From assembly GCF_011045215.1 (NCBI RefSeq), contig NZ_CP049201.1: a DNA stretch of 64,000 nucleotides. The stretch is one strand, 5' to 3'. The first letter of the stretch is position 1. Each line of letters starts with the position of its first letter. The DNA is from Escherichia coli. Its GTDB lineage: Bacteria; Pseudomonadota; Gammaproteobacteria; Enterobacterales; Enterobacteriaceae. Both the position numbers and the translations under genes were made by a program. Under the pieces are notes generated by a model. That model ran no database searches, was not told where the DNA came from, and worked only from the letters and a program-made list of their open reading frames with translations. Below, in pieces: positions 621-16,819 of this stretch.

Positions 621-704
621 ATAACACTGGAGAATAATTGTTGTCCGAAGCCTAACCAGGCGAACGGTCCCTCAAGACAGATGGGGACCGTTTATGTGCT
701 ATTT

Positions 705-1763
705 TTATGCCGCATCCGCTAAAACAAACATCCCGTAAGGATGGATTTCGAGGTAATAGTGCTCACCAATATCGGGCTGTAAACGGGTGGCGTTTACTTG
801 TAATAAAATCTCCTGTCCATGCCACTCTACGGTCACTTCGTACTGCGGCCCCATGTAGGCGACATGGCGAATAACACAACGCTGACTCTCTTCGCCGTGA
901 TTGCTTAAGGTGATGGCTTCCGGGCGAACGCCGACGGTGCCGCTACCTTGCGCCGGGAAATGCGCCGCGCGCGGCAGGCGATAACCGTAGATATCGACAT
1001 ACTCTTCGCTAAAGTTCGCCGGGAACAGGTTGGCGTCGCCCATAAAACTTGCCATAAATCGGGAGGCTGGCTGACGATAGAGATCCTGCGGTGAGCCAAT
1101 CTGCATGATGTGACCTTTATTCATCACCAGCACAGTGTCGGACACCGCGAAAGCTTCACTTTGATCGTGAGTGACGTAGAGCGACGTGATATTAAACTGC
1201 TTTTGCAGCTCGCGGATCTTATCGCGCATACTGCGGCGCAGGTTGGCATCGAGGTTACTTAACGGCTCATCAAACAGCAGCACCTTTGGCTTGAGGATCA
1301 ACGCGCGGGCCAGTGCCACACGCTGTTGCTGACCACCGGAAATCTGATCGACATAGCGGTCCTCGAAGCCTTCCAGATCCACCATTGCCAGCGCCTCCTT
1401 CACCCGCTGTTTCACTTCGCTACGCGACACGCCAAGCATCTTCAGCCCGTAGCCAACGTTTTCACCCAGCGACATATGCGGGAACAGAGCGTATGACTGA
1501 AACACCATGCAGATATCGCGCTGTTGAATGGAACGATGCGTGACATCTTCGCCATCAATAAAAATTTGCCCTTCGCTCGGTTTTTCCAGCCCGGCAACCA
1601 GACGCAAAATGGTGGTTTTGCCACAGCCGGAAGGACCGAGCAGCGTCACCATTTGCCCTTGTGGAATGGTGAGATTGATATTGTCGATAACCGTATTACT
1701 GCCGAATCGTTTAGTGACGTTGCGCAGTTCAACAAAATTTTTCTGACTCATAGTGCGCTCCAT
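705..1763 (-). CDS. afuC: ABC transporter ATP-binding protein, AfuC/FbpC-like
   Basis: 352-aa ORF with Walker [13 protein letters not shown] signature [15 protein letters not shown], Walker B LLFDEPLS and a C-terminal TOBE-like extension. Start codon overlaps the upstream permease stop (TAATG). Confidence 0.85.
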
Positions 1764-3841
1764 TACGCCTGGTTTTTGGCTTTAGAACGGGAGATACGAG
1801 CTTCTCCGATCAGCCAGTCAAAGAGGAAAATAATCGCCAGCATCACCACGATCAGAATCGAACCATAGGCGATGGCTACGCCATATTCGCCGTCTTCAAC
1901 GCGGTTAAGAATGTAGGCGGTTGCCACGCGGGTGTCCGGCGTGACGAGAAAGACGATGGCGCTGACCGTCGTGATGGCCCGCACAAAGCTGTAGATCAGG
2001 GCCGAGAGAATGGCCGGACGCAGCAGCGGCAGTAAAATGTGGGTTATGGTTCGCAAGGAACCCGCGCGCAGGCTGAGTGAGGCTTCATCCAGCGATTTGT
2101 CGATCTGCCCCAGACCCGCAATCCCGGCGCGAATACCCACCGGAACGTTACGCATCACCATCGAGATAATCACAATTGCCGCCGTTCCGGTGAGATAAAC
2201 CGGAGCGCTGTTAAAGGCAAGAATATACGAAACGCCCGCCACCGTACCCGGTACGGCAAAGCACAGCATGGTGGTGAACTCGATGGTCTTTTTGCCTTTG
2301 AATTGTTGACGCACCACCACCCAGGCGATGAGCAGGCCAAAGATAGCGGTAATGGGAGCGGCAATCCCGGCGTAGAGCAGGGTATCCAGCAGTGAAGGCC
2401 ACGCGCCGTCGCTCATTCCCTGACCAAATAGCTTGATAAAGTTATCCAGCGTCAGGGTGTAGTCCACGCCCCAGTTCACCGTGAAGCTGCCGTAGAAAAT
2501 GCTGCCGTAGAGCAGGGCGTTAAAGGCAATCCATATCGCAAGTATGGCGACCACGCTCCACACCAGGGTGACCGGTAGCGGCTGGACGTCGCCACGGTAG
2601 GATTTGCCGGAAACCGTGACGTAAGAGCGTTTACCAATCCACATATACTGGATGCAGAACACCAGCAGCGAGAACAGCAGCAGGAAAGCGCCAAGGGTGC
2701 TGGCGGCCTGATAATCCAGCTGCGAGCCGGTAATATAGAAGTAAATTTGCGTCGCCAGTACGTCGAAGTTACCGCCAAGTACCAGCGGGTTACTGAAATC
2801 AGCCAGTGACTGTACCACGACGATTAAAAAGGCATTGGCGAGTGCGGGCTTTAGCAACGGCACAAACACGCCGTTAAAGGTTTGCCAGCGGCTGGCGCGC
2901 AGGGTGTAGGAGGCCTCTTCCAGCGAGGGATGAATGGTTTTAATGGCCCCGTCGAGGATCATAAATGCCATTGGCGTGAATGCCAGAACCTGTGCCAGCC
3001 AGATCCCGGTAAAACCGTACAGCCAGTTGGTGTTGGTCAGCCCAAACCACTCCACCATAAATTCCGTAACATAGCCGGAGCGCCCCATCATGAGCGTCAC
3101 GCCTAAGCCGACCACAAACGGTGGCGTAACGATGGGCAAAATGGAAAAGATGCGACCAATAATGGCGCTGCGTTTAGCGATGCGCGTGGTATAAATCGCC
3201 AGCACCAGGCCGAAGAAAGTACAGCCTATCCCCACCGCTATCGACAAGACGATAGAGTTGACGATCACCTGAACAATATGTGCCTGCGAGAGCACGGTCA
3301 TAAACGCCAGCGGGGCGAACTCTCCCGCGTCGTTGGTGAACATCGGGATAAAAATGGCGATGCTCGGCCAGACGATAAAAATGCCAATCAGCGCCACAAT
3401 CGCAATCAGTGAGCCGATCACGAAGCGGTCGCCGCCCAGCCATTCGAGGCGGGTTAAGGCCAGCGTCATAATCGCGCCTAGTTCAACAAACAGCACGATG
3501 GCGGCGTAGCCTAAACCGCGTCCAGCCACGGTGGCGCTGATGACGATAAACGCCATACAGAGCAATGCCCAGCTGGCATCAAAATAATGACGACTACGCT
3601 GTTCGCGTGTGACCTCACGAAACGGGCGAACCAGCAACAGACTCGGTAACAAATACCACAGCCAGCTGATATTAAAATGCGACCAGCCATAAGCCTCGAG
3701 GATCTCATCACTCGTGGACTCCAGCAGGCCATAATCGAGGCTCCAGCTCGGCAACAGTATAAATGCCAGCCAGCCCAGCAAAACCCAAAGGAAAATCGCA
3801 TCCCGCTTTTTCACGGGATGGAGTGCAAGTGTCTGTGACAT
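1763..3841 (-). CDS. afuB: ABC transporter permease, fused two-domain, AfuB/FbpB-like
   Basis: ORF track 1763..3892 (709 aa, highly hydrophobic, two permease halves). The 3892 start is a TTG; the ATG at 3841 (MSQTLALHP) is more plausible. Start is uncertain by 17 codons. Confidence 0.8.
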
Positions 3842-3909
3842 AGCAGTTCCGGTATGGTTGGCCGGGGCAGGCGTTTGTGCTGCACCCGGCAAATACGCCT
3901 AATGCGGGT

Positions 3910-4941
3910 TTATTTACCCATCTTCACTTCGCTGACCCATTTATTAATCAATGCCTTACGAACATCCGTGGAACCATATTTATCCATGTCGTAGTTGATT
4001 AATTTCAGGTCGTCGAGCTTCAGCGAATTTGGCGACGTTTCGGCGGTGGTATTGGTCAGGATCTGATAAGACTTCCCTTTCTTCCACGCCAGTTCCTGAG
4101 CTTCTTTTGATAATACCCAGTCCACAAACAGTTTGGCGTTGTCGAGGTTGCGCGCGCCTTTCAGAATGCTGACGCCGCCAATTTCGTAGCCCGTACCTTC
4201 ACACGGGGAAATCAACTCCAGCGGCGCGCCCTGTTCTTTTTCCAGCGAGTAGTCATGCAGGAAGCCAATACCAATCGCCGTTTCGCCACGGGCGGCGTTA
4301 CGTGCCGGGGCTATGCCTGATTTGGTGTACTGAGAGACGTTGGCGTTCAGTTGTTTTAGATAATCAAAGGCCTGATCTTCCCCCCACAGCTGCGCAAAAG
4401 TAGCCAGGGCGGTGTAGGCAGTACCGGAACTTTGCGGATCGGCAATTTGAATTTCGCCTTTATATTCCGGTTTGGTGAGATCTTTCCAGCACTTCGGCAC
4501 CGGCAGGTTTTTCTCTTTCAGACGATCGGTGTTTACGCCAAAACCGAGGATCCCCACATAAACGGCAGAGGACAGATTCCCTTTCACTTTTGCCGGATCG
4601 CGGAATTTCTCCATGATCTGCTCAAGGTTAGGGGATTTATACGCCTGTAGCAGGCCCATCTCGCCAGCCTGCGATTGCGGGTCTAAAGTGCCGCCGTACC
4701 AGACGTCAGCCTGGGGGTTTTTCTTTTCAGCATCGACTTTTGCCAGGGTGCTTCCGGAACCGTTGCGGATAAACGAGGTTTTTACATCATATTTCTCGCC
4801 AAACGCTTTGGTTTCGGCCTCACACATTTCATTGGTGGCGCTGCAATAGACCACCAGCCGGCCTTTTGCCTGCGCGGCACCCGTTAAAGTCGCCAGCGCA
4901 ACGGCAGAAGCAATCAGAGTAGAGGTAAAGGTCATTTTCAT
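3910..4941 (-). CDS. afuA: Periplasmic substrate-binding protein of ABC transporter, AfuA/FbpA-like
   Basis: ORF track 3910..5268 trimmed to MKMTFTSTLIASAVALATLTGAAQA (signal peptide), giving 343 aa. Its ATG overlaps the stop of the upstream UhpC-like gene (ATGA at 4938..4941). Confidence 0.85.
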   Translation of the reverse strand: MKMTFTSTLIASAVALATLTGAAQAKGRLVVYCSATNEMCEAETKAFGEKYDVKTSFIRNGSGSTLAKVDAEKKNPQADVWYGGTLDPQSQAGEMGLLQAYKSPNLEQIMEKFRDPAKVKGNLSSAVYVGILGFGVNTDRLKEKNLPVPKCWKDLTKPEYKGEIQIADPQSSGTAYTALATFAQLWGEDQAFDYLKQLNANVSQYTKSGIAPARNAARGETAIGIGFLHDYSLEKEQGAPLELISPCEGTGYEIGGVSILKGARNLDNAKLFVDWVLSKEAQELAWKKGKSYQILTNTTAETSPNSLKLDDLKLINYDMDKYGSTDVRKALINKWVSEVKMGK

Positions 4942-6254
4942 TGTTTTATCCTTCGAGCGTGAGTGGTGGTGATGCCCGCCATCAGTAACGGCATCAGCAG
5001 TAAACCCATAAGTACTGCGGCGACCGAGAGTAAACTGAACATTCCCGGCCAGCCGTAGCGTTCGATGACCAGCGACAGCGGCCAGCCTGCCAGCGCCGCG
5101 CCAAGGTAAGCGAACAGGCCGAGAAATCCGGTGATTGAACCCGCCGCAGCTTTGTGCCCACACTCCACCGCCGCAAGTCCAATCAGCATTTGTGGGCCAA
5201 AGACGAAAAAGCCCACGGTAAAAAAGCACACTGCCAGCAGAGCGTAGTGATGAACCGGTGCCAGCCACAGTGCGGCGACTGACACCATCAACCCCAACGT
5301 GAACAGCAAAATCATTGGCGCTCGTTGCCCGCTAAACAGCAAATCCGATCCCCATCCGGCAAATAACGCGCCGAGTAAGCCGCCCACTTCAAACAGCATT
5401 ACCGTGGCGTTGGCGCTGAGCAGGTTGACACCGTGGCTTTCCGTCAGCCAGATATTGCCCCAGTCGTTAAGCGCAATCCGGATCACATAAACCAGTACAT
5501 AAGAGACGCCCAGTAGCCAGATCAGCGGATTTTGCAGCATGGTGGTGCGCAACATTTGCCACAGCCCCATCGGCGGACTTTGTTGTTCCTGACGTAACTC
5601 CAGCGGATCGTGACGCCAGTGACCAACTGTCGGTAATCCCTCTTCCTGGGGCGTGCCTTTGAGTTGTAGCGTTAACCAGATCCCTAATGCCATGCTGATT
5701 ATCCCCGGTGTCAGCATCGCGGCCTGCCAGCCCCACCAGTGGGCGGCAAAGGCGCTAATCAGCGGAATAATCGCTCCGCCAATGTTGATCGACATATTCC
5801 AGCAGCCCCACCAGAAACCGCGCTCATTGCGTGAGTACCAGTGGGTCAGCAAGCGGGCACACGGTGGCCATCCCCAGCCCTGAAAAAAACCGTTCAGTGT
5901 CCAGACCACAAGCAGAAGCGTAAGTGATTCGCCAAAGGCAAACACCACGTTCAATAACCCGGTGGCGAACAAGCCGACGCCCATAAAACCGCGTTGTCCG
6001 TGGCTGTCATGCCACAGTCCGGCGGTAAATTTCGACAATCCGTAGCTGAGATAAAACAGCGAACCCAGCAGGCCAATGTCGCCTTTATCCAGTCCGAGGT
6101 CGGTTTGTAGCGCCGGAAGGACGTAATTCACGCTTTTTCGCGTCAGATAAAATGCGGCGTAGCCAATAATCATGCACATCAGCAATCGCGGACGTAATGT
6201 CCGGTAGCATTGATTAATTTCTCTCGCTGAACGCGCGTGCATGGTTGTCTCCAT
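4938..6254 (-). CDS. MFS sugar-phosphate sensor/transporter, UhpC-like
   Basis: 438-aa polytopic membrane protein with organophosphate:Pi antiporter family features (G-rich TM helices, 12 predicted TM segments). Resembles UhpC/UhpT but sits in a separate locus. Confidence 0.8.
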   Translation of the reverse strand: METTMHARSAREINQCYRTLRPRLLMCMIIGYAAFYLTRKSVNYVLPALQTDLGLDKGDIGLLGSLFYLSYGLSKFTAGLWHDSHGQRGFMGVGLFATGLLNVVFAFGESLTLLLVVWTLNGFFQGWGWPPCARLLTHWYSRNERGFWWGCWNMSINIGGAIIPLISAFAAHWWGWQAAMLTPGIISMALGIWLTLQLKGTPQEEGLPTVGHWRHDPLELRQEQQSPPMGLWQMLRTTMLQNPLIWLLGVSYVLVYVIRIALNDWGNIWLTESHGVNLLSANATVMLFEVGGLLGALFAGWGSDLLFSGQRAPMILLFTLGLMVSVAALWLAPVHHYALLAVCFFTVGFFVFGPQMLIGLAAVECGHKAAAGSITGFLGLFAYLGAALAGWPLSLVIERYGWPGMFSLLSVAAVLMGLLLMPLLMAGITTTHARRIKQ

Positions 6255-6326
6255 GTTGCTGACTATATGAAAATGAAAGTGAAAGGGGATGAGAGAAAAT
6301 CCGGGATACCTAAGACTTTTTCCTGG

Positions 6327-7868
6327 TTATCCGGCGATTTGTTGCAAAAATGTGGGCAAGTTAACAATTACCCGCGTGCCGTGCTGTTTTTCGAGCGTTA
6401 AGTCGCCGCCCAGGGCGCTGACGCGCTCACGCATCCCCTGAATGCCAAATCCGGCCATTTTCCCGCTGGCGATCCCCACACCGTTGTCGCTGACTTCCAG
6501 ATGCAATACCTCTCCCTGCTGGCGCAGGATAATCGTCACTTCGCTGGCTTCGGCGTGTTTACAGATGTTATTGAGCAACTCCTGCAATAACCGATACAAG
6601 GTAAAGCGCACCGTTTCGTTTTCTGGTGTGGAGTTCAGTTGATAGGCAAACTGGCAATGAATGCCGCGTTCACTAAAGGCAAATTCATTAATCAGATGCA
6701 ACAACGCTTCGCGAAATGTCAGTTCATCAAGCGCGGGAGGCCGCAACTGGCGTAGCAATTGGCGGGTGGAGAGATGAATGCGGCGGGCGAGCTCATTGAT
6801 TTGGCTGGCTGCGGATTGAATTTGCGCCGGATCACGCGCCCGCTTCACCAGTTGCGACTGGATCTGAATGGCGGTGATGTTCTGACCGATTTCGTCGTGC
6901 AGCTCTCGCGCCAGGTTTTTTCGCGTGTCCTCCTCGGTGTGGATCAGCTTTTCCGCCAATGCCCGCCGCGCTGCCAGCTCGGCCTCCAGCCGTTGTCGGT
7001 AATGGTGCAGGTTTAGCGCCAGATGTTGCTGGCGACTGATGGCAATGCCCAGGCCAATTCCCAGCAAGGCCTGGGTCGCGAGGAAAATCTCCAGCTCCAC
7101 CAGGTTACTAAAGCCCACGCCAATCTGGCGGGCGATGGTGATCATCATGCTGCCCAAAAGCCCGGAGAGTACGCCACCTTGCCAGCCAAATTTCCACGCC
7201 ATCACCACATTGGGCAAAAAGACCACGATCAACAGCAGACGTTCAATTTCAGGTGACAGCACCATCTGAGTGCCGATACCAATAATAAAAAACAGGCTAC
7301 ACCAGATGATTAAAGAGGTACGCAAGGGGGGATTATGCGTATCGAGTCCCAGGAGCTGGTAGCGATGCTGCTGGCGCAGAAACTCAAAGATAAGATAGAC
7401 AAACGGCGTCAGTAATACGCCGCCGGTAAATGAGGTCAAACCCGGCAGCATTATTGGGCCCGACATAAAAGGGGAGAGCAGGGCGGTATTCAACAATGAA
7501 GCTGCCGTGACAGTGGCTAACAGCAACGTCAGACGCTGCCAGTAAAGTGGAAAACGGTGCCAGAAGTTTTGCGCAAGGAGGACAGGAAACAGGCTAATAA
7601 CCGGCGTTGCCAGCATGAGATAACCGTTCAATAGCTGTTCACTATGGAGCCAGAACATCATCAGCAAAGGGGGGAGCACCAACGCAGGCCAGTAGCGGCG
7701 AGAGAGCAAAATAACAAGGGCGAGATAAACTCCCTGAGGGAGAAACAACACTGCCTGTTGACCGTTATTGGTCAGATAAAAGCTGAGCGTCCACAGCATC
7801 AGCCAGCCGGTTCCCCAGGCCAGCACAATAAACAGCGAAATCACCCAATGACGAAGATTGCGCGACAT
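6327..7868 (-). CDS. Sensor histidine kinase, UhpB-like (MASE1 membrane domain + HisKA_3/HATPase)
   Basis: 513 aa; N-terminal multi-TM region, H-box ELHDEIGQN and NarX/UhpB-type ATPase motifs (DNGVGI, GFGIQGMRERV). Confidence 0.85.
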   Translation of the reverse strand: MSRNLRHWVISLFIVLAWGTGWLMLWTLSFYLTNNGQQAVLFLPQGVYLALVILLSRRYWPALVLPPLLMMFWLHSEQLLNGYLMLATPVISLFPVLLAQNFWHRFPLYWQRLTLLLATVTAASLLNTALLSPFMSGPIMLPGLTSFTGGVLLTPFVYLIFEFLRQQHRYQLLGLDTHNPPLRTSLIIWCSLFFIIGIGTQMVLSPEIERLLLIVVFLPNVVMAWKFGWQGGVLSGLLGSMMITIARQIGVGFSNLVELEIFLATQALLGIGLGIAISRQQHLALNLHHYRQRLEAELAARRALAEKLIHTEEDTRKNLARELHDEIGQNITAIQIQSQLVKRARDPAQIQSAASQINELARRIHLSTRQLLRQLRPPALDELTFREALLHLINEFAFSERGIHCQFAYQLNSTPENETVRFTLYRLLQELLNNICKHAEASEVTIILRQQGEVLHLEVSDNGVGIASGKMAGFGIQGMRERVSALGGDLTLEKQHGTRVIVNLPTFLQQIAG

Positions 7869-8497
7869 TAATGCCCCGCCAGCAGATGGTGGTCGAGCGC
7901 AAAATGTACCAGTTCAATGGTGCTATGGCAGTTCAGTTTTCCCAGCACATTGGCGCGATGCACATGTACCGTTTTATGACTGAGTTCGAGTTTAAAGGCG
8001 ATCTCTTTAACGCTGTCTCCTTTGACCAGTAAATCAAACACTTCACGTTCTCGTGGGGTGAGAATTTCTAGCGCCTGGGCGGGTTGCCCGCCGCCGCGTA
8101 AAGCCCGAATCGCATCGGCACAGAGATAATGCCCGCCCAGCCCGACCGAGCGCACCGCCTGTACTAACTCTTCCGGCCCACAGCGTTTGGTTAAATACCC
8201 GCTGGCACCAGCATCCAGCGCGCTTTGCACAAAGGTTGGCGCGTCATAAATGCTAAGAATAATGGCGCGAAATTGCGGTTTTTGTGCACGCAGGCGCTTA
8301 AGCAAACTGAGGCCGTTTTCGTCCGGCATGGCAATATCAATGACGGCAACATTGACGTCATCACGGATTAATGCCGACCATGCCTGCGCGGCACTACTGT
8401 ACTGACCAATGACCTCCAGATCGTCTTCCAGAGAGAGTAATTGTGCGAAGCCAGAGCGCACCACCACATGGTCATCCACCAGCACTACCCGAATCAT
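7868..8497 (-). CDS. Response regulator, UhpA-like (REC + LuxR-type HTH)
   Basis: 209 aa; MIRVVLVDDHVVVRSGFAQLL receiver domain and C-terminal LuxR HTH (KEIAFKLELSHKTVHVHRANVLGKL). Stop overlaps the kinase start by 1 nt. Confidence 0.85.
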   Translation of the reverse strand: MIRVVLVDDHVVVRSGFAQLLSLEDDLEVIGQYSSAAQAWSALIRDDVNVAVIDIAMPDENGLSLLKRLRAQKPQFRAIILSIYDAPTFVQSALDAGASGYLTKRCGPEELVQAVRSVGLGGHYLCADAIRALRGGGQPAQALEILTPREREVFDLLVKGDSVKEIAFKLELSHKTVHVHRANVLGKLNCHSTIELVHFALDHHLLAGH

Positions 8498-8799
8498 ACT
8501 TTTCTTCTCTTATTATCTAATTCTCCTATCATGCATCACGGCGCGGCGCTGGCAATCAACCAGCGACAGATATGGAATGGATGTAACAAAATGGCAATAA
8601 TTTGCCGGAGCGCACACATCTTATCTGGCTTGTGAACCGGCGGGATACGTTCGCCAAAACCGCAAAATGCGCAAACTCGCTAACCATTGCCGATTTTTTT
8701 CTAAAAACGCTTTGTTCTTAACAAGACCTTTTAATTCCTTTATCAAACTGACCCGCAACGAAATACTGCTCCCATAACAAGACAGGGGAGCAGACAATC

Positions 8800-9762
8800 A
8801 TGGCAATTTCATCGCGTAACACTCTTCTTGCCGCACTGGCATTCATCGCTTTTCAGGCGCAGGCGGTGAACGTCACCGTGGCGTATCAAACCTCAGCCGA
8901 ACCGGCGAAAGTGGCTCAGGCTGATAACACCTTTGCCAAAGAGAGCGGGGCGAACGTGGACTGGCGCAAGTTTGACAGCGGAGCCAGCATCGTGCGGGCG
9001 CTGGCTTCAGGCGATGTGCAAATCGGCAACCTCGGTTCCAGCCCGTTAGCGGTTGCAGCCAGCCAACAGGTGCCGATTGAAGTCTTCTTGCTGGCGTCAA
9101 AACTGGGTAACTCCGAAGCGCTGGTGGTAAAGAAAACTATCAGCAAACCCGAGGATCTGATTGGCAAACGCATCGCAGTGCCGTTTATCTCCACCACCCA
9201 CTACAGCCTGCTGGCGGCGCTGAAACACTGGGGCATTAAACCCGGGCAAGTGGAGATTGTGAACCTGCAGCCGCCCGCGATTATCGCTGCCTGGCAGCGG
9301 GGAGATATTGATGGTGCTTATGTCTGGGCACCGGCGGTTAACGCCCTGGAAAAAGACGGCAAGGTGTTGACCGATTCTGAACAGGTCGGGCAGTGGGGCG
9401 CGCCAACGCTGGACGTTTGGGTGGTGCGCAAAGATTTTGCCGAGAAACATCCTGAGGTCGTGAAAGCGTTCGCTAAAAGCGCCATCGATGCTCAGCAACC
9501 GTACATTGCTAACCCAGACGTGTGGCTGAAACAGCCGGAAAACATCAGCAAACTGGCGCGTTTAAGCGGCGTGCCTGAAGGTGACGTTCCGGGGCTGGTG
9601 AAGGGGAATACCTATCTGACGCCGCAGCAACAAACGGCAGAACTGACCGGACCGGTGAACAAAGCGATCATCGACACCGCGCAGTTTTTGAAAGAGCAGG
9701 GCAAGGTCCCGGCTGTAGCGAATGATTACAGCCAGTACGTTACCTCGCGCTTCGTGCAATAA
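8800..9762 (+). CDS. tauA: Taurine ABC transporter periplasmic binding protein
   Basis: 320-aa ORF with signal peptide, matching TauA; followed by tauBCD in the canonical order. Confidence 0.92.
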   Translation: MAISSRNTLLAALAFIAFQAQAVNVTVAYQTSAEPAKVAQADNTFAKESGANVDWRKFDSGASIVRALASGDVQIGNLGSSPLAVAASQQVPIEVFLLASKLGNSEALVVKKTISKPEDLIGKRIAVPFISTTHYSLLAALKHWGIKPGQVEIVNLQPPAIIAAWQRGDIDGAYVWAPAVNALEKDGKVLTDSEQVGQWGAPTLDVWVVRKDFAEKHPEVVKAFAKSAIDAQQPYIANPDVWLKQPENISKLARLSGVPEGDVPGLVKGNTYLTPQQQTAELTGPVNKAIIDTAQFLKEQGKVPAVANDYSQYVTSRFVQ

Positions 9763-12319: not shown

Positions 12320-13294
12320 TTAACGCAGAATCTTCTTCTCAGCCAGATCCAGCGCAAAGTAGCTGAAAATCAGATCCGCACCTGCACGCTTAATCGAACC
12401 TAAGCTTTCGAGCACCACTTTCTCTTCATCTATAGCACCCGCCAGCGCGGCGAACTTAATCATCGCGTACTCACCGCTCACCTGATACGCGCCAATCGGC
12501 AATTCAGTACGTTCACGCAGCTCACGCACGATGTCGAGGTACGCTCCAGCAGGTTTAACCATCAGGCAGTCTGCGCCCTGGGCTTCATCCAGCAGTGACT
12601 CACGAATCGCCTCACGACGGTTCATTGGGTTCATCTGATAGCTTTTGCGGTCGCCTTTTAATGCGCTTCCGGCAGCTTCACGGAACGGACCATAAAAGGA
12701 GGAGGCGAACTTGGTCGAATACGACATAATCGCCGTATCTTTAAAGCCAGCAGCGTCCAGCGCCTGGCGAATCGCCTGTACCTGGCCATCCATCGCGGCG
12801 GAAGGGGCGATGAAGTCTGCACCTGCAGCAGCTGCAACCACGGCTTGCTTGCCTAAATTTTCCAGAGTCGCGTCGTTGTCGACGCCATGCTCGCACAGCA
12901 CACCGCAGTGACCGTGAGAAGTGTATTCACAGAAGCAGGTGTCTGACATGACAATCATTTCTGGCACTGTCTGCTTGCAGATGCGCGACATACGCGCCAC
13001 CAGTCCATCTTCCCGCCAGGCATCGCTGCCGGTTTCATCGGTATGGTGAGAGATGCCGAAAGTCATCACGGAACGAATACCGGCGTTGGCGATGCGTTCA
13101 ATTTCGCGTGCCAGATGTTTCTCTGGAATGCGCATCACGCCAGGCATGGCTTCAACGGCTTTGTAGTCGTCAATTTCTTCTTCAACAAAGATCGGCAACA
13201 CCAGGTCGTTAAGGCTAAGTGTTGTCTCTTCAAACATAGCGCGCAGCGCAGGAGATTTGCGCAGGCGACGAGGGCGTTGGATTAAGTCTGTCAT
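12320..13294 (-). CDS. hemB: Porphobilinogen synthase (delta-aminolevulinic acid dehydratase)
   Basis: ORF track 12320..13327 trimmed to [28 protein letters not shown] (324 aa), matching HemB. Confidence 0.93.
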
Positions 13295-13819
13295 GGTCTG
13301 CCTGATGTTTGTGGAATTAAGGTGCACAGTATACCTGAAGCGGGGCAGGAGTGTTTTACGAAAGTTGTCACGATGTTGACAAGAAGAGAATGAAAGAGAG
13401 ACCAGGGCATCTTTGTAATAGAAATAGCAATAACTTCATATTCACTGAAAATATTTTTTAATTTTTATTTATAGGTGCTGGTTATTATTTTTGCTAATTT
13501 GGTTGAACTGTCAAAAATTGAATTACTTAAAGTTCATTGTTTATTGATACATTATTTGTCTGATTTGTTGTTTTGGTATTTTTAGGATCTATAATTCAAA
13601 ATTAATGATTTCATTAACGTGTTGAAATGCAGTGTTTTTGTCAACTTATTCTTTGTGCGTATAGATATTTTTATATATGTCCGCAATCGGACTTAGGGGA
13701 AAGAATAATTGAACCATTCCTCTATAACGCCGCATAATCGTAAACGCGAAACATAAGATGTTTTCTATGCATTGATAATTGATGGATCAACTTATTACGT
13801 CCCTGAGGAGGGATGACAA

Positions 13820-16819
<3,000 letters not shown>

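Follow-up and report, generated by a model that had tools for sequence, protein, structure and literature searches.

Two promoter cassettes, probably self-contained, appear to share the fusR-tauA gap of Escherichia coli next to a gene cluster that looks like an old neighbour of tauABCD

Two promoters, one for each flanking gene, can be predicted in the 302-bp gap between fusR and tauA in the stretch of Escherichia coli DNA analysed here (64,000 nucleotides, hereafter the window). Comparison across species suggests that they are probably two self-contained cassettes, firing in opposite directions and juxtaposed, and not one integrated control region. Cassette A, on the fusR side, would consist of a minus-strand promoter with a 33-bp conserved upstream element, presumably the site of a binding factor. 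Cassette B (8680-8799, plus strand) would be the tauABCD promoter, whose weak -35 and conserved upstream box (box 1) would suit activation by Cbl/CysB under sulfate starvation. Between the two would lie about 77 bp of unconserved filler, a place where REP elements and other DNA appear to come and go by species. The pairing itself appears to be old: many Enterobacteriaceae have the six-gene cluster headed by fusR next to the tauABCD operon, whereas the majority of E. coli have apparently lost it.

The anatomy of the gap, its pattern of conservation, the variable distance between the modules and the synteny are direct observations; from them we infer the transcription start sites, the protein binding and the functional independence of the cassettes. 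The gap is an ordinary divergent intergenic region of known parts. Its interest as a piece of regulation is small; the ancestry of the O-island 20 (OI-20) cluster and the nature of the K-12 tauA allele, both described below, are the more useful observations.

Layout of the fusR-tauA locus

According to the open reading frame list and the sequence, the gap spans 8498-8799 and is non-coding, with fusR (minus strand) and tauA (plus strand) diverging from its two ends. The fusR gene (7868-8497, minus strand; 209 aa), which corresponds to EHEC z0463 (PMC6199705), encodes a response regulator of the NarL/FixJ family. The best NCBIfam match of its product is UhpA with 193 bits; because this score lies below the equivalog cutoff of 258 bits, we call the regulator UhpA-like and not UhpA. 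The tauA gene (8800-9762, plus strand; 320 aa), the first of tauABCD, encodes the binding protein of the taurine ABC transporter. Its product is recognized by the NCBIfam equivalog with 697 bits against a cutoff of 490, and the RefSeq annotation concurs.

Beyond fusR the minus strand continues with fusK for a UhpB-like MASE1 kinase (6327-7868), z0461 for a UhpC-like MFS protein (4938-6242) and the genes of an AfuABC-type ABC transporter (705-4941). The fusR stop overlaps the start of fusK, and z0461 and afuA overlap by 4 bp. In an E. coli genome that matches at 99.7% identity, RefSeq annotates the genes in the same layout.

An earlier sequence-only reading of this DNA had described a back-to-back divergent geometry over 302 bp, a UhpA-like regulator and a tauA promoter inside the gap. 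The first two points are confirmed by the ORF coordinates and by the sub-cutoff NCBIfam match; the third is accepted as necessarily so. The divergent pair is a plain fact, for which a chance test is unnecessary.

What that reading called the accessory operon is the EHEC OI-20 cluster fusR-fusK-z0461(uhpC-like)-afuABC; the names OI-20, FusKR and AfuABC are those of the literature (PMC4546632, PMC6199705, PMC11644481). Compared with the z0463-tauA region of EHEC O157:H7, 301 of the 302 gap bases match, and the sole difference is A/G at 8614, in the spacer. Gene order is equal, FusR is identical at 208 of 209 aa, and FusK has 2 aa changed. Since the DNA is essentially identical, the published O157:H7 roles of FusK/FusR and z0461, as well as repression by QseB/QseF and AfuABC transport, should carry over to the cluster in the window. 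According to reviews, fusKR is repressed by QseB and QseF (PMC5120142, PMC4810492). Unlike the EHEC O157:H7 system, the nearest matches to the window come from non-O157 strains (baboon, guinea fowl).

Conserved modules and the spacer between them

Alignment of 24 fusR-tauA gaps delimits a conserved module A at about 8526-8602, with a mean identity of 0.73-0.74 over 8526-8556 and 8578-8608. Read on the minus strand, the module contains a predicted sigma-70 promoter for fusR-fusK (8528-8555), composed of a -35 TTGCCA (8555-8550), a 16-bp spacer and a -10 CATGAT (8533-8528), which reads CATCAT in other genera. Each of the two hexamers is at least 90% conserved across species. The offset between the -10 and -35 blocks is constant in 28 of 32 species, and the remaining 4 are unmeasurable with the anchor patterns used. 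A consensus scan of the gap returned one sigma-70-like match where 0.6 would be expected, a result that alone is not significant. Accordingly, the predicted promoter draws its support from conservation across species and not from its scan score. Its -10 (CATGAT) is a weak hexamer, as are those of the predicted tauA promoter (TTTATC/AATACT). Judged from the position of the -10, fusR transcription would start near 8521. It would be followed by a predicted 5′ leader and ribosome-binding region (8498-8520, minus strand), which reads TAGATAATAAGAGAAGAAAAGT and then ATG and is moderately conserved (mean identity 0.41).

Further upstream, at around -49 to -81 relative to that start, lies an element of 33 bp (8570-8602, strand unspecified) that reads ATATGGAATGGATGTAACAAAATGGCAATAA in the window and has the consensus TTATGTAACGAATGTAACAAAATCGCAATAA. 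Its mean identity is about 0.74 across 22 non-E. coli species, compared to 0.20 in the neighbouring spacer. Most of the element (up to 8593) accompanies fusR to E. coli islands at other sites.

Several assignments of this element were considered and rejected. It does not qualify as a site of FusR autoregulation, since the motif of the z0461 promoter (AAAGTC...GACTTT, CCAGG) is missing there. The ATGTAACAAAAT motif, considered in the same context, is not enriched: it has 7 matches in the window where 6.7 are expected. A CRP site and a plus-strand promoter were both dismissed on inspection of the alignment. A sigma-54 promoter was dismissed as well, for GG-N10-GC fits the window only and is unconserved. 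We also discarded a supposed remnant of the fusR module in the 615-bp yaiS-tauA gap of K-12 (TTATGTGAATGTAAT): its alignment scores of 26-28 fall within those of shuffles (mean 24.8, maximum 38).

On the other side of the gap, the tauA cassette (8680-8799) has a mean identity of 0.82 in the same 24 aligned gaps. It begins with box 1 (8680-8712, plus strand; CTAACCATTGCCGATTTTTTTCTAAAAACGCTT), which covers roughly -94 to -62 relative to where tauA transcription is predicted to start. We propose box 1 as the binding region for the LysR-type activators Cbl/CysB, an assignment that is presumptive for Cbl. The box is conserved in species with fusR and without it and is partly kept in the divergent K-12 allele; the region upstream of K-12 ssuE shows a similar T-run/CTAAAAA pattern. 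The distance from box 1 to the -10 is 62 bp in 31 of 32 species; in the remaining one, no box was matched by the anchor pattern.

The core promoter of tauA (8730-8767, plus strand) consists of box 2 (TTTAATTCCTTTATCAAA), a weak -35 TTTATC (8739-8744), a variable spacer of 17 bp and a -10 AATACT (8762-8767). Whether fusR is present (24 species) or absent (another 24), the box 2/-35 block and the -10 block are at least 90% conserved, and the 17-bp spacer between them varies. The weak -35 would fit an activator-dependent sigma-70 promoter. Placed from the -10, the predicted tauA leader (8774-8799, plus strand) starts near A8774, has a length of 26 nt and carries a Shine-Dalgarno sequence GGGGAG (8785-8790). 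The last 38 bp before the tauA ATG are identical in K-12, for which van der Ploeg et al. reportedly found a tauA leader of 26 nt in 1997.

In the 24 fusR-less species, conservation upstream of tauA starts at the same point, about 8680, and none is seen further upstream. Because conservation begins at about 8680 whatever the neighbour, the tauA control region appears to be a self-contained cassette of about 120 bp.

The cassette also holds a perfect 8-bp inverted repeat (CTGCTCCC / GGGAGCAG) that pairs 8766-8773 with 8786-8793, from the tauA -10/discriminator to the ribosome-binding site. Across species, 6-8 of the 8 pairs are kept. A leader hairpin of these arms that masks the ribosome-binding site was nonetheless rejected: compensatory changes are absent, and the predicted transcript would begin only after the left arm. 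Some species have insertions within the tauA leader, between the -10 and the ATG; the one in Enterobacter sp. JUb54 measures about 60 bp.

Modules A and B are separated by a spacer of about 77 bp (8603-8679, strand unspecified) that is weakly REP-like and unconserved, with a mean identity to other species of 0.20 (24 gaps aligned, over 8609-8679). In other species the DNA at this position measures anything from 0 (or about 20 bp) to over 3 kb, and clear REP/BIME sequences are frequent in it. The spacer segment of the window occurs at a median of one place per E. coli genome, that is, it is unrepeated elsewhere. For this reason we reject an active REP family and describe the spacer merely as REP-like.

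Comparison within E. coli alone resolves the gap into three pieces: module sequence at 8498-8593, a stretch found only at this junction at 8594-8661 and core sequence at 8662-8799. The island/core junction at 8661/8662 thus falls inside the spacer, and homology to island-free ST131 begins at 8662. In some species (5 loci), 0.9-3.6 kb of extra DNA separates fusR from tauA.

The gap holds no credible known RNA, given that an Rfam search at E ≤ 1 returned a single meaningless plant miRNA match (E 0.98). Likewise, none of its ten small ORFs (25-64 aa) is supported, as all enter the unconserved spacer or the coding flanks.

A probable separate promoter for z0461-afuABC

The sequence-only reading placed the promoter of the operon in the gap next to tauA. 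The intergenic region between fusK and z0461 leads us to revise this. It is 84 bp long, near-invariant across 32 sequences from at least 9 genera, and has a -10 of its own. The promoter region recognized there (6262-6326, minus strand; CCAGGAAAAAGTCTTAG...) comprises a -10 TATAGT (6267-6262) and, upstream, a CCAGG-containing block. It probably drives z0461-afuABC and, by analogy with the UhpA-dependent uhpT promoter, is probably controlled by FusR. Since this conserved gap carries its own -10, the transporter genes would have their own promoter at a distance of 2.2 kb from tauA. The promoter in the fusR-tauA gap is therefore most likely that of fusRK. A candidate FusR-type site upstream of z0461 (AAAGTC...GACTTT) is absent from the 302-bp gap.

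The arrangement resembles that of uhpABC-uhpT. Both loci have a paralogous regulator, a kinase and a UhpC-like sensor in the same order, and a transporter behind a separate conserved promoter; the uhpT and z0461 promoters are also alike in that a good -10 is preceded by a block containing CCAGG. The differences are as clear. The transporter is an ABC system (AfuABC) in the cluster and the antiporter UhpT in the uhp locus. The regulator and the kinase of the cluster score below the UhpA and UhpB equivalog cutoffs, and the signal reported for FusKR is fucose, unlike that of the hexose-phosphate uhp locus. Finally, uhpA has ilvN upstream on the same strand and is not part of a divergent pair, whereas fusR is divergent from tauA.

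Distribution and age of the cluster

Among 5426 complete E. coli genomes, the cluster adjoins tauA in 450, and 65 more carry it elsewhere, so that its presence is polymorphic within the species. The 65 off-site copies consist of fusR-fusK-uhpC-afuABC next to a tyrosine integrase, in contexts such as the tRNA-Sec site and the neighbourhood of ulaE. These genomes match only bases 1-94 of the gap used as query, which assigns the part at 8498-8593 (minus strand) to a mobile six-gene module. Because it is integrase-linked at other sites, the six-gene module also serves as cargo of mobile islands; the copy beside tauA looks ancestral. At the tauA site of the window itself we found neither integrase nor tRNA; integrase-linked copies occur only at the other E. 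coli sites.

Junctions at the tauA site take the form of a REP-type replacement. In ST131-like island-free strains, frmR lies 305 bp from tauA and a REP-type stretch stands in the place of the island. The tauA-proximal 138 bp (8662-8799) are present in island-free ST131 at 97% identity.

The sequence-only reading had treated the operon as acquired. We surveyed other species with a TauA scan of one genome per species, keeping the best 80 loci. In 34 of these 80, genes whose products share 80-97% aa identity with FusR, FusK, the UhpC-like protein and AfuA stand immediately upstream of tauA and diverge from it, and the cluster thus lies beside tauABCD-hemB in 34 species and is not missing from this locus in relatives. 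The genera concerned are Citrobacter, Klebsiella (oxytoca group), Raoultella, Enterobacter, Leclercia, Lelliottia, Silvania and Huaxiibacter, together with a second Escherichia lineage. On longer contigs, the full order hemB-tauDCBA<>fusR-fusK-uhpC-afuABC is seen in C. amalonaticus, K. oxytoca and an E. mori-like strain.

Neither composition nor divergence sets the cluster apart from the flanking core genes. When the window is compared with Citrobacter and Klebsiella, the island genes are 79-87% identical in nucleotides, and tauABCD and hemB 81-85%. In the E. mori-like strain, which is more distant, the values fall to 72-74% for fusR and fusK but remain at 80-82% for the flanks. The GC content is 0.51-0.56 in the island genes and 0.54-0.59 in tauABCD/hemB. 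We could not, then, uphold an acquired origin: with synteny in 34 of the 80 loci (at least 9 genera), core-like divergence and the same GC, the locus points to an old neighbourhood and not to foreign DNA. The cluster (638-8661 of the window) looks like an old neighbour of tauABCD that was lost from most E. coli or exchanged among close relatives.

According to reviews, FusKR was acquired recently, possibly from Enterococcus faecalis, and is confined to EHEC (PMC11644481, PMC4810492). In contrast, the present comparison puts the cluster beside tauA in many Enterobacteriaceae. If FusKR/AfuABC is an old and mostly lost neighbour, the framing of its role in the evolution of virulence changes.

Elsewhere in the window, GC falls sharply to 0.37-0.38 at 13201-14000, between hemB and a large autotransporter gene (13820-16798).

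Relation between the two promoters

The conserved blocks of the gap end at 8602 and resume at 8680, and no operator or promoter elements overlap or are shared as in a control region of the araC-araBAD type or of LysR-type regulator/target pairs. Distance and phasing between the promoters are not conserved either. Across 32 species the predicted starts lie 194-3577 bp apart (median about 262; 253 in the window), and in the shortest versions, those of Enterobacter with 194 bp between predicted starts, the cassettes nearly abut. The modules look autonomous, since their blocks do not overlap, their internal spacing is rigid, the distance between them is free and each exists without the other. The regulatory cross-talk or promoter occlusion envisaged by the sequence-only reading therefore finds no support in the sequence. 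Occlusion by read-through is not expected in any case, since divergent promoters send polymerases apart.

We consider it rather unlikely that the two promoters influence each other in cis, whether by shared or competing binding, by occlusion or by transcription-induced supercoiling. Divergent promoters within a range such as the 253 bp that separate the predicted starts in the window can couple through supercoiling, and such coupling leaves no sequence signature. Nonetheless, a start-to-start distance that varies 18-fold across species while spacing inside the cassettes stays fixed argues against coupling, as do the unconserved spacer between non-overlapping blocks and the retention of each cassette, unchanged, without the other. 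The adjacency of fusR and tauA in 34 species speaks for coupling, and so does the mirrored occurrence (inverted repeat) of ATTGCC at the outer end of both cassettes. This 6-mer, however, was picked post hoc and lies within chance, and it is unneeded in the K-12 allele.

Conserved divergent pairs of a regulator and an operon often mark regulation, and a transcription factor gene has been kept divergent from tauA in at least 9 genera; a direct control of tauABCD by FusR, with the pair as regulator and target, would explain this. We regard it as very improbable. All of these genera come from one family in which synteny is broadly retained anyway, the same tauA cassette is kept without fusR in 46 of the best 80 species, and the cluster works from other chromosomal sites in the 65 E. 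coli genomes mentioned above. Moreover, the candidate FusR/UhpA-type site of the z0461 promoter is missing from the gap, and the literature searched contained no published link between FusR and tauABCD. Just as improbable is the idea that insertion of the island severed distal regulatory sites of tauA, for example an upstream CysB site, so that island strains regulate tauA differently. In K-12, CysB sites do lie upstream of the Cbl site, and no more than 112 bp separate the junction at 8661/8662 from the predicted start of tauA. But conservation stops at about 8680 in all species examined, with or without fusR, and nothing is therefore conserved past the junction. There, strains that share the allele but have no island carry an unrelated REP stretch, and the true difference from K-12 is an allele within the cassette that is independent of the island. 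Two autonomous cassettes thus remain the reading that we prefer.

ATTGCC(A/G) occurs three times in conserved columns, at 8550-8556, at 8595-8601 (minus strand) and at 8686-8692 (plus strand). Two copies belong to the fusR module, one of them being the fusR -35, and the third stands mirrored at the outer end of the tauA cassette. As a site for a shared factor these three copies were rejected, being compatible with chance for a 6-mer so chosen. Nor is ATTGCC linked to fusR, because among species that lack fusR the G of the copy in the tauA cassette is missing from the E. cloacae clade and present in others. We give little credence to a functional pairing, be it through a common factor at the mirrored ATTGCC(G)ATTTT motifs (about 8591-8602 and 8686-8697) or through an action of FusR on tauA. 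If such a pairing were true, it would tie the sensing of host-derived sugar to taurine-sulfur scavenging in gut Enterobacteriaceae.

Two alleles of the tauA promoter

The tauA promoter is dimorphic in E. coli: of the 5426 genomes, 4363 are of the K-12 type at -138 to -38 and 1009 of the window type. The K-12 tauABCD promoter resembles that of the window in serving the same gene, in its final 38 bp (which include the -10 end and the leader) and in the colinear order of box 1, box 2 and -10. It differs in having yaiS upstream of tauA, where the window has fusR. A BLAST comparison of the two tauA promoters matched nothing beyond the last 38 bp. Upstream of -38, the two alleles are colinear and share 48% ungapped identity, compared to 29% for shuffles (z 4.3), and the similarity is register-specific.

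The K-12 tauABCD promoter depends on Cbl and CysB and is induced by sulfate starvation. In the work of van der Ploeg et al. from 1997, the Cbl footprint on it is said to extend from -112 to -68. Since the window allele is only 48% identical to K-12 upstream of -38, its dependence on Cbl is an extrapolation, as is control by Cbl/CysB in general. In its favour, box 1 and box 2 persist in the K-12 and the window allele alike, and the region upstream of ssuE has the similar pattern.

The window-type allele is common to E. albertii, Citrobacter, Klebsiella, Enterobacter and, more weakly, Pantoea. Outside E. coli, the K-12-type allele was found only in E. whittamii. Because the window type is the family-wide allele, the K-12 tauA promoter is the derived form. 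All experimental work on the tauA promoter thus concerns an allele that has diverged and is confined to Escherichia, and around one in five E. coli genomes, including those of O157:H7 and ST131, carry the family-wide allele.
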